Both the position numbers and the translations under genes were made by a program. A stretch of 64,000 nt of DNA, from positions 64,001 through 128,000 of the forward strand of contig JAZQAZ010000020.1 in NCBI GenBank assembly GCA_045545475.1, given 5' to 3'. Positions 43,398 through 50,063 of this stretch are shown piece by piece. Below the pieces are notes generated by a model that was given only the letters and a program-made list of their open reading frames with translations, made no database searches and had not been told where the DNA came from. Source of the stretch: Clostridia bacterium. Lineage in GTDB: Bacteria; Bacillota; Clostridia; CAKSNL01; HGM11501. Each line of letters starts with the position of its first letter. Position 1 is the first letter of the stretch.

Positions 43398-43446
43398 AAA
43401 AATAAAACAAGACATTTATTTAAATAAATGTCTTGTTTTTATTTTT
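43398..43446 (+). terminator. Terminator after arg operon
   Basis: AAAATAAAACAAGACATTTATT/AATAAATGTCTTGTTTTATTTT palindrome. Confidence 0.7.
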
Positions 43447-44971: not shown

Positions 44972-45005
44972 GGCAGCTGTAAACTTATGTTTACAGCTGC
45001 CTTTT
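44972..45005 (+). terminator. Intrinsic terminator upstream of recombinase gene
   Basis: GGCAGCTGTAAAC-ttat-GTTTACAGCTGCC-TTTT. Confidence 0.85.
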
Positions 45006-45098: not shown

Positions 45099-45929
45099 AT
45101 GGATTTTTTATCTGAATTCAGAGAAAGGCTTGTAAATGATGAGAAGGCAAAACTTACTGTGGAAAAATATGTAAGAGACTGCAGGGCGTTTTTAGCATGG
45201 GTTTCGGAAAGCGGGAGAACGCTGGATAAAGAGGCGGTGCTTTGCTATAAGGAGCTTATTTCAAAGAAACACAAAACTGCCGGAGCGAATTCTATACTGT
45301 CATCTCTGAATGCATATTTTTCATATATAGGGAGAGATGAGCTTAAGGTAAAAATATTAAAGAGACAAATGACTACCTTCAGAAACGAAGAGAAAGAACT
45401 TACGAGAGACGAATATGTAAGGCTGCTTAATGCCGCAAAGGAGCGTAAAAACAGAAAGCTTTATTATATTATGATGACTGTATGCCGCACAGGGATAAGA
45501 ATTTCGGAGCTTTCTTATATTACGGTGGAAGCGGCAAGAAAAAAGGAGGCGGTTATAGGAAATAAGGGGAAGATAAGAATTATCCTGCTTCCGGAAAAGC
45601 TTTGCAGAGAGCTTCTTTGTTATGCTTCTGAAGAAAAAATAAAAAGCGGCCCCCTGTTTGTAACAAAAAACGGGAATCCGCTTGACCGATCAAATATATG
45701 GAAAATGATGAAATCTCTTTGCGAAAGTGCGAATGTGGAAAGGGAAAAGGTTTTTCCGCATAATTTAAGGCATCTTTTTGCGGTAACCTTTTACAGTGTC
45801 CATAAAGATATTGTGCATCTGGCAGATATTTTAGGACATTCTACGGTTTCCACTACAAGAATTTATACACTGGAAAGCAGCGGGGCACATAGAAAACAGA
45901 TGGAACAACTAACAGGTCTTTTGATTTAA
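45099..45929 (+). CDS. Tyrosine-type site-specific recombinase (putative DNA invertase), 276 aa
   Basis: RBS AAGGAGG; catalytic set R (TGIRISEL), K (GNKGK), HxxR (HNLRH), H (LGHS), Y (TTRIY); N-terminal core-binding helices (TVEKYVRD). Confidence 0.93.
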   Translation: MDFLSEFRERLVNDEKAKLTVEKYVRDCRAFLAWVSESGRTLDKEAVLCYKELISKKHKTAGANSILSSLNAYFSYIGRDELKVKILKRQMTTFRNEEKELTRDEYVRLLNAAKERKNRKLYYIMMTVCRTGIRISELSYITVEAARKKEAVIGNKGKIRIILLPEKLCRELLCYASEEKIKSGPLFVTKNGNPLDRSNIWKMMKSLCESANVEREKVFPHNLRHLFAVTFYSVHKDIVHLADILGHSTVSTTRIYTLESSGAHRKQMEQLTGLLI

Positions 45930-45937
45930 AAATAAAA

Positions 45938-45965
45938 ATACCACATAATGCCGATTATGTGGTAA
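45938..45965. repeat. Left recombination site (IRL), dif-like 11-6-11 palindrome
   Basis: ATACCACATAA-TGCCGA-TTATGTGGTAA, starting 8 bp after the recombinase stop. Confidence 0.9.
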
Positions 45966-45984
45966 AAAGAATTATTACATAAAG

Positions 45985-46013
45985 ATTATAACATCAGGGA
46001 AGCGGTTTGTCAA
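45985..46013 (-). promoter_or_regulatory. Consensus SigA promoter inside invertible segment (currently facing away from downstream gene)
   Basis: Minus strand TTGACA (46013-46008), 17 bp, TATAAT (45990-45985) with extended TG. Confidence 0.88.
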
Positions 46014-46067
46014 TAGTTTTTTATCAATGGAAAAATAAAACTTTGCAAAAATCAGACATAATGAAGC

Positions 46068-46105
46068 GACCGATGAGGCAGAATTTTACATCGGTCTTTT
46101 TTTTG
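46068..46105 (+). terminator. Orientation-dependent intrinsic terminator inside invertible segment
   Basis: GACCGATG..CATCGGTC hairpin followed by a long T run on the plus strand only. Confidence 0.7.
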
Positions 46106-46166
46106 CGCACATTTTTTGGGAAAAATTTCTTTTTATAAAATCCGTATGGCAGATGAGAAGGAGAGA

Positions 46167-46194
46167 TTACCACATAATCGGCATTATGTGGTAG
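46167..46194. repeat. Right recombination site (IRR), inverted copy of IRL
   Basis: TTACCACATAA-TCGGCA-TTATGTGGTAG; its reverse complement matches IRL at 27/28 positions, including the asymmetric spacer. Confidence 0.9.
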
Positions 46195-46229: not shown

Positions 46230-49200
46230 ATGAAAAAGGAGTTTTTGCACATTTTCAGCTTCGTTATGATTGCAATTTTCACATTCTCTTGTATCGGGGC
46301 TGTAAGTGCGGAAGAAACCTTCGATATTCCCGTAATTGAGGAAGTATCGGAGGAGGAGCTTGCAGAGGTTCTCCCGGAAGAGGCAGACGTGGAGATGATG
46401 GAGGAAGAAACGGAAATCGCTAAGGAAGAAGCATATTTTGAAATACGTGACGGAAAAGGAAATCATGTATGGTTTTTTGCTGATTTGAAGGAGGCACTTT
46501 CCTCAGATAAATTACAAAACGGCTATACACTTTTGATGCTGAAAGACTACACTTGGGATTATACTCTGGCAGATGTATCCAAGGGCGAAATCAGCGGAAT
46601 AGATATGCCGGGAAGTAAAACCTTCACATGGGACGGCGACGGTCATACCATTACCGACAAATTTGACAGAAGCAAGTATACGAGAATGACTCAAAAAGAC
46701 GGTGTATGGACTACGGAGTTGGGAGGCCATGATGACAGAGCTTCCTACAATCTTGGTAGTGCAAAAGTAACTGCGAAAAACATAACATTTTCGGGAAATC
46801 CGCAAAATACGATTAATAAACAGGGACATACAAATGGCTGTTTTAATATCGGTAACGGTCAGCTTACATTGAAGGATGTTAAATTTATAAACTATTTCGG
46901 ATGGAACGGCAGCGTTTGTTGGATGCAGGGAACAGGCAAGCTGGTTATGGTTGAAAATGTAACTGCCGAAAACTGTTCAGTGCAATACCACGGTCTTATA
47001 GGGATAAATAAAGGAACTGCTGAAATAAGCGGATTCACTATGAAAAACTGTAAAGGAACTGCTGCTATCGGTGTAGGTACAGTTGCTTCCGAGGCAAGCC
47101 TTAACATAGAAAACAGCACTATAACAAATTGTTCAACCGGAATACTTGTAGGAGCTTCTGGTGAGTCTGGTAATCAGGGTGTTGCTAATATTGGAGACAA
47201 TGTGACTATATCCGGTTGTTCATATGGTATATCTGTTCATACTGGTGCTACAGTCAATGTGACAGGCTTAAACGTTAATATTAACAGAAATACCGAAAGT
47301 GGTATAGTTCTTTACAACAAAAAGGAAGCTGAAATTGGCTCAACATTAAATGCAACTGGTGGAATGAATATAACAGAAAACCAGAACGCCGGTATTGATA
47401 TTGCTGAAAACTCAATAGTTATATTAAATGGCAATGTCAATGTTACAGAAAATACAAATGCTGATATCAGAATGGAAGTAGCTGACGCACTTGAGGTTGG
47501 CGAAGGCTTTACTGGAACGGCAGGAGTTAGTGTTGTTTCAAACGATATCTGGTTCGGACATCTGGCAGAAGGGGTAGAAACACTTAATGGAACAATATAC
47601 GAGGGAATTGATCCCAACGGACATAAAGGTGCTGTATATGAAAGCCTGATTGGTTCGGGAACGGTAACCCATAACGGAAAAACATATTCTCTTAAAAAGC
47701 CTGTAACAAGAGACCTTGACGATAATGCTCTTGTAATTGGCTACAAAATGTATAAAAAAACAGGCTCCGATGCGGCGGGATACAAGAGAGTCGGAGCGGA
47801 TGCTGCCATAGGTACAAGTATGCTCAGCGGTGGAGAAATTTATCTTCTTTCGGATATAACTTTGGCAGGAGATATCAAGTGCGATAAGGATAGCTCTACT
47901 ATTGACGACCACTTTGACTTTACCGGAAGCACAGCTGTTGCAAATATATACGGAAATGGTCACACAATAAGCATTCATGATGATTATACAAAGGGGCATT
48001 TTTTCGCAGTTTACCAGGATGCGACCATGAATTTCCACGACGTTATTTATAACGGAAAAGGAAGGACGACTTTTGCCTATATACACTGCTCGGAAGACCC
48101 TAAGGGTGGCGGTGCAATAAGTGCAGACAATGTTATATATTATAATGGTAAGCATACTACCTATGCCGGCGGTATTTATAACTCAGGAGAAGCCTATGCC
48201 GGTACAATAAATGTAAAAGACTGTAAGTTTATAGCATGCAAAGGTGCAAACGGCGGTGCATTATATTCTACAGGACTCGGCGTGCTCAATGTATCTGATA
48301 CAGACTTTATAGATTGTGCGGCTACAAGTAACGGAGGTGCAGTTTATCTCACCAATAATCATACAATGACTATGTCTGGAGAAATCAATGCTACAGGCAA
48401 TAAGCGTGGAAGCAAGGAAAACAATGTGTACCTTTCAAGCGGAGCGAAAATAAACATAGCAGGAAACATAACAGGTGAAATAGGTCTTACTATGGCACAG
48501 TCAGGTGCAACCTTCGGAACTGTTGCAGATACCAATATCACAGGTCTTGATTGCTTCTATGCAGATGGTGCAGAGATAAGATATTATACAGCAATCGGCA
48601 CCGAACCTGTCATTGAAAAGGTTAAAGGTACCTTGTTCCCGGAAACTGTGGGAACAGGTGAACTTAACGGTGAGGTTGTTATCGATATGCAGGATGTTGC
48701 ATCAAGAAAAGAGGGAAGAGAAAAGGATGCAGTTTTGCACTGGCCCTGGATTGTAGTAAAAGAAGACGAAACCAGATACGGATATGTAAGCCTTAACTCG
48801 GCGTATTCAAACCTTGCGGCAACTTCATTCATATATGCTCAGAAGGACATAACAATTCAGCATTTGTGGGATAAAGCTATAACAACTGAAACAACAAGCG
48901 AGGAAAGAAAAGAAATCTATGCACACGTAGAATTTCCTCTTCCGGGTTCTGGAGATAGGCTTAACCATATAAATACGGGAGCAAATGTAAACATCGACGG
49001 AAACGGACACGTGATAACGGTAGATAAATCTGATAGTAACTATATGTTTGTTATATACGGCAATAACAAGAGCTTGCAACTTAAAAACTTTATTTATAAC
49101 GCCGATAAGCCTATGGCACATATACATAAAGACCAGGCAAACGGAACAGAAGCGATTATCATAAATAACAGTTATTTCAACAGTCCGAACAGAAATGTTA

Positions 49201-50063
49201 TAGGTGCATTTAAGGGAGGAACGGTCACTGTCAATGACAGCACAGTGATTGGAACTTTCGATATAGGATCAGGAGCTAAGCTTATACTTTCTGATACGGC
49301 AGTTTCAAAACCGAGCGGAAAGAGTGTGGTTCTTACCGGTGTTGCACCTGTTGAAGCAAGCGGCGAAACAGCGGCAGTTCCTGCGGTAATTACAAAAGTA
49401 ACGGTAAAGGGTGATACGACGATTTCAGCAGGTAATGGCCTTTATGCAAATAATAAGTATGTCGAAGTTATAATAGACGAAAGCTTTACCGGTTCAATTG
49501 AGGTAAATGAGGCGAACGGCTGTATAGATAATGTTAAAGCAGGCGAAGGCTTTACTTCCTTAGAGTCTGTAAAGAGCATTACTAAAGCAGGTTCAAACGG
49601 CGAAACATTTGCATATTATGACGAAGCAAATGAAAAGTTTGCGTGGACTATGGCACCTGAGCTTACACGTACGACAGATTCGGGTAAGTATAGTGACGGG
49701 TACGGAACAATAAGATTTCTGACAACATTTAAAACTGTTGACTCTGCTGCCGTTGCAAGTTATGGAACCTATGCGGTGGGAGAAAGCAGCTTTGTTGAGA
49801 ATGCAGAGTGGGAAGAAACAGAGTTCATAAAATTTGACAAGACACCGGAAGCTGATAAGGTATATTATGTTGATGTTATAAAAATTCCCGCGGAGCATTT
49901 TGATACAAAAATTAAGGCACTCAGCTTTGTAAAGATTAAAGGAATAAAAACCCCCATTTATTACGATTTCAATTTGGCAAGTGTAAATAAAAATGACACA
50001 GAAACAGGCGAGGGAACACTGAAGAACTTAGGCAAGCCAACATATGCCGAAGCAGAAGCATGA
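46230..50063 (+). CDS. Large secreted/surface protein with right-handed beta-helix (pectin-lyase-like / Pmp-like GGA repeats), 1277 aa
   Basis: ATG at 46230 after GAAAGGAAGGA; signal peptide MKKEF..VSA; acidic linker; NC..GI and GG(A/I) beta-helix repeats; three G(D/N)GH(T/V)I-containing modules. Confidence 0.8.
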   Translation: MKKEFLHIFSFVMIAIFTFSCIGAVSAEETFDIPVIEEVSEEELAEVLPEEADVEMMEEETEIAKEEAYFEIRDGKGNHVWFFADLKEALSSDKLQNGYTLLMLKDYTWDYTLADVSKGEISGIDMPGSKTFTWDGDGHTITDKFDRSKYTRMTQKDGVWTTELGGHDDRASYNLGSAKVTAKNITFSGNPQNTINKQGHTNGCFNIGNGQLTLKDVKFINYFGWNGSVCWMQGTGKLVMVENVTAENCSVQYHGLIGINKGTAEISGFTMKNCKGTAAIGVGTVASEASLNIENSTITNCSTGILVGASGESGNQGVANIGDNVTISGCSYGISVHTGATVNVTGLNVNINRNTESGIVLYNKKEAEIGSTLNATGGMNITENQNAGIDIAENSIVILNGNVNVTENTNADIRMEVADALEVGEGFTGTAGVSVVSNDIWFGHLAEGVETLNGTIYEGIDPNGHKGAVYESLIGSGTVTHNGKTYSLKKPVTRDLDDNALVIGYKMYKKTGSDAAGYKRVGADAAIGTSMLSGGEIYLLSDITLAGDIKCDKDSSTIDDHFDFTGSTAVANIYGNGHTISIHDDYTKGHFFAVYQDATMNFHDVIYNGKGRTTFAYIHCSEDPKGGGAISADNVIYYNGKHTTYAGGIYNSGEAYAGTINVKDCKFIACKGANGGALYSTGLGVLNVSDTDFIDCAATSNGGAVYLTNNHTMTMSGEINATGNKRGSKENNVYLSSGAKINIAGNITGEIGLTMAQSGATFGTVADTNITGLDCFYADGAEIRYYTAIGTEPVIEKVKGTLFPETVGTGELNGEVVIDMQDVASRKEGREKDAVLHWPWIVVKEDETRYGYVSLNSAYSNLAATSFIYAQKDITIQHLWDKAITTETTSEERKEIYAHVEFPLPGSGDRLNHINTGANVNIDGNGHVITVDKSDSNYMFVIYGNNKSLQLKNFIYNADKPMAHIHKDQANGTEAIIINNSYFNSPNRNVIGAFKGGTVTVNDSTVIGTFDIGSGAKLILSDTAVSKPSGKSVVLTGVAPVEASGETAAVPAVITKVTVKGDTTISAGNGLYANNKYVEVIIDESFTGSIEVNEANGCIDNVKAGEGFTSLESVKSITKAGSNGETFAYYDEANEKFAWTMAPELTRTTDSGKYSDGYGTIRFLTTFKTVDSAAVASYGTYAVGESSFVENAEWEETEFIKFDKTPEADKVYYVDVIKIPAEHFDTKIKALSFVKIKGIKTPIYYDFNLASVNKNDTETGEGTLKNLGKPTYAEAEA

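Follow-up and report, generated by a model that had tools for sequence, protein, structure and literature searches.

The locus described here lies in a stretch of Clostridia DNA that was analysed over its full length of 64,000 nucleotides (the window). A gene encoding a tyrosine recombinase is followed by two inverted copies of a short site, which enclose a segment with a promoter, and then by a large open reading frame (Table 1). These elements sit between what we take to be a DUF1846 gene and a YcxB gene, the latter presumably followed by miaB- and mutS-like genes. Perfect hairpins at positions 43398-43445 and 44972-45001, which we take to follow an argD-like gene and the DUF1846 gene, respectively, are probably terminators.

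Table 1. Features of the recombinase locus, with positions counted from the first letter of the window.
Feature	Position	Strand	Remarks
Tyrosine recombinase, likely invertase	45099..45929	+	276 aa; PF00589, E 2e-24; stop 8 bp before site A
Site A (recombinase-proximal)	45938..45965	+	11-6-11; arms palindromic over 10 bp; spacer TGCCGA at 45949-45954
Invertible segment, predicted OFF orientation	45966..46166	.	201 bp; reverse-complemented in L006 (see text)
Promoter, sigma-70/sigma-A type	45985..46013	-	TTGACA-17-TATAAT, extended TG; consensus match 12/12
Hairpin and T8 tract	46068..46104	+	-12.2 kcal/mol; z -1.83; 12/200 shuffles as stable
Site B (downstream)	46167..46194	-	inverted copy; spacer TCGGCA at 46178-46183, reverse complement of TGCCGA
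Predicted controlled gene	46230..50063	+	1277 aa; ORF and RBS; start 35 bp past site B

Site A reads ATACCACATAA TGCCGA TTATGTGGTAA and site B reads TTACCACATAA TCGGCA TTATGTGGTAG; together they form a 27-nt inverted repeat of 100% identity, with 201 nt in between and 229 bp from site to site. The first-pass annotation of this DNA had described both as 11-6-11 sites with self-complementary arms and mutually reverse-complementary spacers. The spacers read as described at both sites and the layout and coordinates hold, whereas the self-complementarity covers 10 of 11 arm positions per site, the outermost base being unpaired. The 20 arm bases were searched against the 2.74-Mb genome, where they occur without mismatch at sites A and B only; no place in the 2.74 Mb matches them with one to three mismatches, and one place does so with four. 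By this arm search the genome holds a single switch, and the presence of several was rejected. With one mismatch allowed, the short core ACATAA-N6-TTATGT is a weak indicator within the window, as at least two matches were found in 5 of 100 shuffles. A genome census of this core, which had been proposed as a check, located it in 64 of 251 genomes of the class.

The recombinase carries the R-K-H-R-H/W-Y set that defines tyrosine recombinases inside its PF00589 domain (R134, K156, H221, R224, H247 and Y256), and these residues are invariant in 118-119 of 119 homologues. Its recognition helix is presumed to be LDRSNIW (residues 195-201). The promoter in the window faces the recombinase and points away from the downstream gene, and the arrangement is that of an inverton, i.e. 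inverted repeats with a promoter between them that faces outwards and lies ahead of a gene. On the opposite strand, the hairpin with its T8 tract, which is absent from the terminator-scan list, could conceivably act as a weak terminator that stops read-through in the OFF state. Across the family, hairpins of -8 kcal/mol or below occur on the strand opposite the promoter in 30 of 55 segments and on the promoter strand in 19 of 55, a modest excess that does not uphold a conserved OFF-state terminator. The N-terminus of the 1277-aa protein resembles a signal peptide when judged by eye. No Pfam family matched the protein at 0.001 (the best weak match is PF20585, E 0.028), and its Atlas matches are to Bacillota clusters without names; adhesin and beta-helix families appear below 0.9 only. 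We regard the product as a probable beta-helix, adhesin-like protein that is secreted or located at the surface.

Inversion of the segment is seen in a public Clostridia MAG (L006), a genome different from that of the window, whose recombinase is 97% identical to the one described here. Its sites are identical and its flanks are colinear with the window, and the segment between them is reverse-complemented: over 201 nt the two segments show 5 mismatches when compared as reverse complements and 142 when compared in the forward direction, and a window inverted in silico differs from L006 at 9 positions in 377 nt. The promoter is kept in L006, where it faces the downstream gene. Sites A and B are thus the hinges of a DNA flip-switch, and the inverted form bears out the earlier proposal that they are recombination sites of a homomeric invertase and not an operator. 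The window is predicted to represent the OFF state and L006 the ON state for expression of the 1277-aa protein. Contigs, as opposed to reads, from 4 of 24 listed sequencing runs (X1, X2, X4 and X6) were also compared. Run X1 contains a 255-nt contig that corresponds exactly to positions 45939-46193, with the flanks on separate contigs, which is the pattern expected at the contig level if both orientations are present in one sample. The region is crossed in a single contig in runs X4 and X6, and is fragmented in X2. Both orientations therefore occur across genomes, as L006 shows, and the X1 pattern adds contig-level, not read-level, information. A joint in X1 that skips the 201 nt was not used; its shorter side comprises 29 letters only, and the joint probably belongs to another locus with the same sites. 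When positions 46390-50063 were compared with L006, the controlled gene was found to be shared only over about 50 codons at its start and a stretch close to its end, plus short patches in the intervening part. The middle of the gene differs, and several run contigs also end near position 46411, which suggests that the middle is an exchangeable passenger region.

The relationship between arms and spacers was followed in 80 homologous loci, of which 69 with at least 500 nt downstream were examined for site pairs. A pair is present in 64 of the 69 (five have none), and no pair among the 64 is in direct orientation. The spacers are exactly reverse-complementary in 63 of the 64 pairs, with 43 different spacers represented. 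Within a locus, agreement reaches 0.98-1.0 at exactly six central positions, compared to 0.27-0.69 between loci; at most variable arm positions the within-locus excess is small or absent (for example 0.22 vs 0.27 and 0.57 vs 0.58 across loci), the largest being 0.56 vs 0.38. As the within-locus match is confined to six positions, they fix a 6-bp overlap region, and the pattern agrees with the earlier statement that the spacer alone gives the site its direction. The arm conserved in the family spans ~9 bp (ACCACATAA). The spacer invariably begins with a pyrimidine, and its sixth position is mostly A, with Y-N4-R preferred. A good promoter match was found in 56 of 63 segments (37 OFF, 19 ON) and a weak one in the other 7. 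Spacer pairs with one mismatch occur at L083, L099 and L098.

We consider it highly probable that the sites are crossover sites at which the adjacent recombinase, an enzyme of TnpI-like descent, flips the promoter segment, with a spacer that is free in sequence and matched between the two copies. The recombinase would act as one protein species, with one subunit bound to each (T)ACCACATAA arm and four subunits bringing sites A and B into synapsis. Cuts would fall at the borders between arm and spacer with a 6-bp stagger, as suggested by Xer/TnpI chemistry and by the covariation at six positions. Because the arms are palindromic, the asymmetric spacer alone would orient the site, and because the two spacers face each other the product would be an inversion of the 201-bp promoter segment, toggling the 1277-aa secreted protein between the predicted OFF (window) and ON (L006) states. 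The spacer would have to match that of its partner and be largely free in sequence, both copies changing together at about the neutral rate. A spacer present in two copies can drift at close to the neutral rate only if some step homogenises the copies, and this could be provided by the reaction itself: inversion across a single mismatch would place one allele at both top-strand junctions and the other allele at both bottom-strand junctions, and replication would then sort the strands into daughters with matched spacer pairs, as strand geometry implies. Acinetobacter pdif sites are described as recombining across one mismatch (PMC13141974).

The first-pass annotation had pictured the sites as symmetrised Xer dif sites used by a repurposed Xer recombinase. 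They were compared with E. coli dif (taken from NC_000913 at ~1,590,750) and with the core site of TnpI, the recombinase of Tn4430 from Bacillus thuringiensis (IRS, IR1-IR2, taken from NC_020378). The CATAA-T....A-TTATG core that the annotation found common with dif is shared beyond chance, as site A agrees with dif at 11 of 12 inner arm positions and at 14 of 22 arm positions overall (values of 0.0008 and 0.002, respectively, among random symmetric sites), and the T....A ends of the spacer are as in dif. With the TnpI core, site A agrees at 17 of 22 arm positions (null 0.0003), and at 10 of 12 inner positions it falls slightly below dif. Among 127 family sites, 122 are nearer to the TnpI core, none is nearer to dif and 5 are ties. 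The arms of dif are self-symmetric at 6 of 11 positions and those of site A at 10 of 11, and the TnpI core is fully symmetric. Sites A and B have the 11-6-11 layout and CATAA-N6-TTATG core of dif-type sites, but not the two unlike arms for two enzymes or the status of a single dimer-resolution site. At the level of sequence, the likeness to dif is real yet not the closest one, since the sites resemble the TnpI core more, and the proposal of a symmetrised dif is not sustained. A role of sites A and B as chromosomal dif was also rejected, as a distinct XerS-like gene of the host comes with an 11-6-11 site of its own that differs from A and B. This unique site (G000:C8:170791-170818, also L203:2573-2600) is symmetric at 10 of 11 positions and lies 50 bp upstream of the 347-aa XerS-like gene; it is probably the host's own dif, used for dimer resolution. 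A similar perfect site lies near the XerS-like gene of L204, and at L202:570-597 (G274) a dif-like site that is nearly symmetric and has the same 12 inner bases is found ~900 bp from an XerS-family gene. No XerD match at E 1e-60 was present in the window's genome (a 95%-complete assembly) or in the two congeners searched.

The origin of the recombinase was weighed in the same way. Its best NCBIfam scores are to Xer families (XerA 133, XerD 121, XerC 101 and XerS 59 bits), and its best profile and PDB matches are archaeal XerA (4a8e, 5hxy) and not TnpI, with which it shares 28.7% identity; however, these scores are far below the respective cut-offs of 220, 330, 335 and 267 bits, and the FimB/E profile yields 34 bits against a cut-off of 221. 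The presumed recognition helix has the LDR of TnpI. Its putative recognition motif RSN (R in 119, S in 107 and N in 97 of 119 homologues) differs from the dif-binding motifs RQX of XerD, XRX of XerC and XKX of XerA (motifs from PMC2958812), although R197 and W201 are placed as in the RQxxW of XerD. Trees of 36 and 30 rows, built without XerA, XerH and RecV, group the recombinase with enzymes from Firmicutes and their relatives that are plasmid-borne, phage-borne or hsdS-associated, and TnpI takes a neighbouring place. The family, plasmid recombinases and TnpI are parted from XerC/D, XerS-like and FimB/E enzymes in the mixture-model tree by a branch with support 93/92, which is unstarred; a long-branch warning was raised in one of the tree analyses. 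Union of the family with clostridial XerD or with E. coli XerD was rejected (p-AU 0.023 and 0.021, LG+G4), whereas its union with XerC/D (p-AU 0.089) or with FimB/E (0.084) was not. The phylogeny that had been suggested as a check, run with XerC/D, XerS-like and FimB/E enzymes, thus places the family outside XerC/D in its best trees and leaves a sister union with XerC/D unrejected. It seems fairly likely that enzyme and site descend from a TnpI-like plasmid or transposon resolvase whose core was already symmetric, in which case the resemblance to dif most likely reflects the shared ancestry of the Xer/TnpI group and not a symmetrised chromosomal dif. That a chromosomal, XerD-like enzyme was repurposed, with a dif that gained its symmetry when the XerD arm was doubled, is improbable: the inner-arm and spacer-end agreement with dif, the RQxxW-like residues, the ranking of the profile scores, the tolerated XerC/D union and the near-symmetric dif served by a single Xer in archaea (PMC2958812) speak for it, and it is opposed by the shortfall of those scores, the rejected XerD-only unions, the motif RSN, the absence of any family site nearer to dif and the separate XerS-like gene with its own site. 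Five further relatives were added, four of them plasmid recombinases and the fifth an hsdS enzyme; three of the plasmid genes (L212, L213 and L214) are each preceded by a single similar site, the arrangement expected of a resolvase, and no matching site was found near the closest outside relatives (a Sebaldella plasmid enzyme, two hsdS recombinases and the SE-1 integrase). Close outside relatives at L207 and L211 lie beside type I restriction hsdS genes and may be hsdS-shuffling invertases.

Two further explanations concern what the sites do and which enzyme serves them. The palindrome might be the operator of an unrelated transcription factor, an idea to which the 10-bp dyad near a promoter and the single core matches seen in some genomes lend a certain look. 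When this alternative was checked, the genome was found to hold two paired, inverted copies only, in place of single copies upstream of many genes, and the segment in L006 is inverted exactly at the sites, which refutes a main operator role. An operator would also not force two variable spacers to match, and a family recombinase match is present in 72 of 80 fetched site regions (picked mostly for paired sites), so that we regard this explanation as almost certainly wrong. Alternatively, a different recombinase could act in trans and the adjacent gene could be dispensable. Family members have almost the same recognition helix, so that paralogues should cross-act, and site pairs at L098:1264-1514 and L138:1496-1648 have no family recombinase within ~1.5 kb and are possibly orphan switches served in trans. 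For the window this is nevertheless very unlikely, as the genome (95% complete) contains five PF00589 matches, of which one is a family member, and the adjacent recombinase has intact catalytic residues. Against it also stands L209:4815-5134, where the same layout, upstream of an S-layer-domain protein, has a changed helix (SRRQIW) together with changed arms (GACAAAA); L209 appears to be a natural specificity variant, and the joint change of helix and arms in this one case links the arms to the neighbouring recombinase.

The first-pass annotation had also suggested that the spacer acts as a code that keeps several switches in one genome independent. Since the window's genome has one switch, the question concerns its relatives only. 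Site regions were fetched from 21 genomes picked for many matches (80 regions, with most isolated single matches left out) and pooled with the homologous loci and the window; after removal of 15 duplicates and 7 site-less loci, the set comprised 131 loci from 74 genomes with 63 spacers. A spacer code diversified by selection finds some support here. Spacers are all different in 22 of 26 multi-switch genomes, and at 70-90% recombinase identity spacers are shared by 3 of 48 same-genome pairs and by 51 of 314 cross-genome pairs (naive Fisher p 0.08, overstated as the pairs are non-independent). At 80-90% identity, same-genome spacer divergence is 0.47-0.55 compared to 0.40 at four-fold sites (n = 10 pairs), and in G001 and G004 two switches ~12 kb apart on one contig have unlike spacers. 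However, a spacer is used more than once in 4 of the 26 genomes, in G002 as many as four times, and same-spacer paralogues are tolerated; sharing overall is commoner within genomes than between them (16 of 142 vs 246 of 8373 pairs, which are not independent), and points the same way at 60-70% identity (5 of 33, all five from G002, vs 60 of 1294). Above 90% identity the counts are 5 of 9 and 16 of 25, and the picture across identity bins is mixed. Spacer divergence between recombinases at least 90% identical is 0.17-0.21 vs 0.27 at four-fold sites, and accelerated spacer evolution was rejected, as divergence is at or below the four-fold-site level in 5 of 6 bins. Given these results and genomes picked for many matches, a selected code is doubtful and the claim that spacers serve to keep switches apart is not upheld; different spacers probably insulate switches as a side effect.

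A more far-reaching picture, which we put forward tentatively and as rather unlikely, is that gut Clostridia harbour a natural network of heterospecific sites, in which interchangeable TnpI-derived recombinases with one shared helix serve dozens of spacer variants and leave pairing to the spacer alone. Paralogues with the same spacer might then exchange promoter cassettes or downstream genes, an inversion across a mismatch might rewrite both spacers, and a palindromic spacer might delete the cassette. Hints in this direction are the same-spacer loci of G002, whose segments are 88-92% identical and whose upstream flanks are 66-79% identical, the orphan site pairs described above, and L072:1030, a single site with the sole palindromic spacer among the 131 loci, with a secreted-protein ORF directly after it and no cassette. 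Deletion through a palindromic spacer is thus represented by one case and is only a hint, and L017:4813 also lacks its cassette with a non-palindromic spacer; the sequence here resembles a site A-type outer arm joined to a site B spacer, which may reflect deletion between arms or misassembly. A cassette swap considered for L089 and L090 was not upheld, as the aligned segments proved to be related but oppositely oriented, with indels, and the low downstream identity of L100 is a contig-end effect.

The switch shares individual properties with several known systems. TnpI acts on perfectly symmetric arms with a 6-bp stagger and a spacer that sets orientation, and its selectivity is lost at symmetrical cores (PMC2847244). 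Like the TnpI/IRS system, the switch combines one recombinase, symmetric arms and spacer-set orientation. The TnpI system also includes DR1-DR2 accessory motifs. TnpI, however, resolves cointegrates at direct-repeat sites, with one site upstream of its gene, whereas the switch has two inverted sites that flank a promoter downstream of the recombinase gene; a TnpI-type single upstream res site is not present, and no further site occurs elsewhere in the genome. XerCD/dif of E. coli has the same 11-6-11 layout but employs two enzymes and asymmetric arms and is no promoter switch; dif depends on FtsK and functions in the resolution of dimers (PMC2958812). Archaeal XerA/dif is similar in that a single recombinase uses a near-symmetric 11-6-11 site, but it has one chromosomal site, the XKX motif and GATATAA-type arms (PMC2958812). 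Identical or near-identical 6-bp spacers decide the partners of Acinetobacter pdif sites and lead to inversions and deletions (PMC13141974). An inverton group (group 139) has been described with Clostridia as hosts in 32 of 33 invertons and an adjacent tyrosine recombinase of invertase group 35; its example has ~26-bp repeats with ~205 bp between them, and flipping was seen in culture (PMC11892184). The window agrees with this group in its Clostridia host, adjacent tyrosine recombinase and sizes of repeat and segment, and the switch is probably a member, by these features and not by motif. The main text of PMC11892184, as available, makes no mention of Xer, a dif site or palindromes, and the switch family is not described in the available text of PMC11602134. 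In a literature search that had subscription papers and the PMC11892184 supplement outside its range, no paper was found that links the family to TnpI or analyses its spacers.

The invertible fimS element of E. coli is also related in design, as an adjacent tyrosine recombinase (FimB or FimE) flips the promoter of a surface-structure gene there. FimB and FimE, by contrast, are ~200-aa proteins on a separate tree branch, and act on short repeats with the help of IHF and Lrp. Cre/loxP resembles the switch in its symmetric arms and spacer-set direction; its site is 13-8-13 and its heterospecific variants, which are mostly engineered, pair solely with their own kind. Cre is a distant enzyme, and the centre of loxP measures 8 bp (PMC2847244).

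The type of switch is already known, and the present analysis refines it with regard to its probable TnpI-like origin and its proposed spacer mechanism. The principle of symmetric arms, spacer-set direction and spacer matching has been established for TnpI, loxP and pdif, so that the surprise is modest. The analysis offers a mechanism for a family of gut Clostridia switches that is very common but biochemically unstudied, and points to its likely origin: a resolvase-type enzyme and its site appear to have been turned into an ON/OFF switch for a surface protein. A rule by which arms are fixed and spacers are free but matched predicts which switches of a genome can cross-react. If this rule is true, the family would also supply multiplexed genetics in Firmicutes with a small, Cre-like enzyme and about 60 naturally occurring spacer variants.

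Some homologous loci depart from the simple layout. The window has no full site beyond A and B, and extra tandem full sites were observed in some homologues (L007, L011, L014, L023, L038, L042, L045, L049, L068, L071 and L080, also L209). They lie mostly 31-34 bp from the main site (up to 53 bp, and once 118 bp), always carry the same spacer as the main site, and are possibly alternative crossover points or accessory sites. At L144:1482-2303, 821 bp separate the two sites, three times the usual distance.
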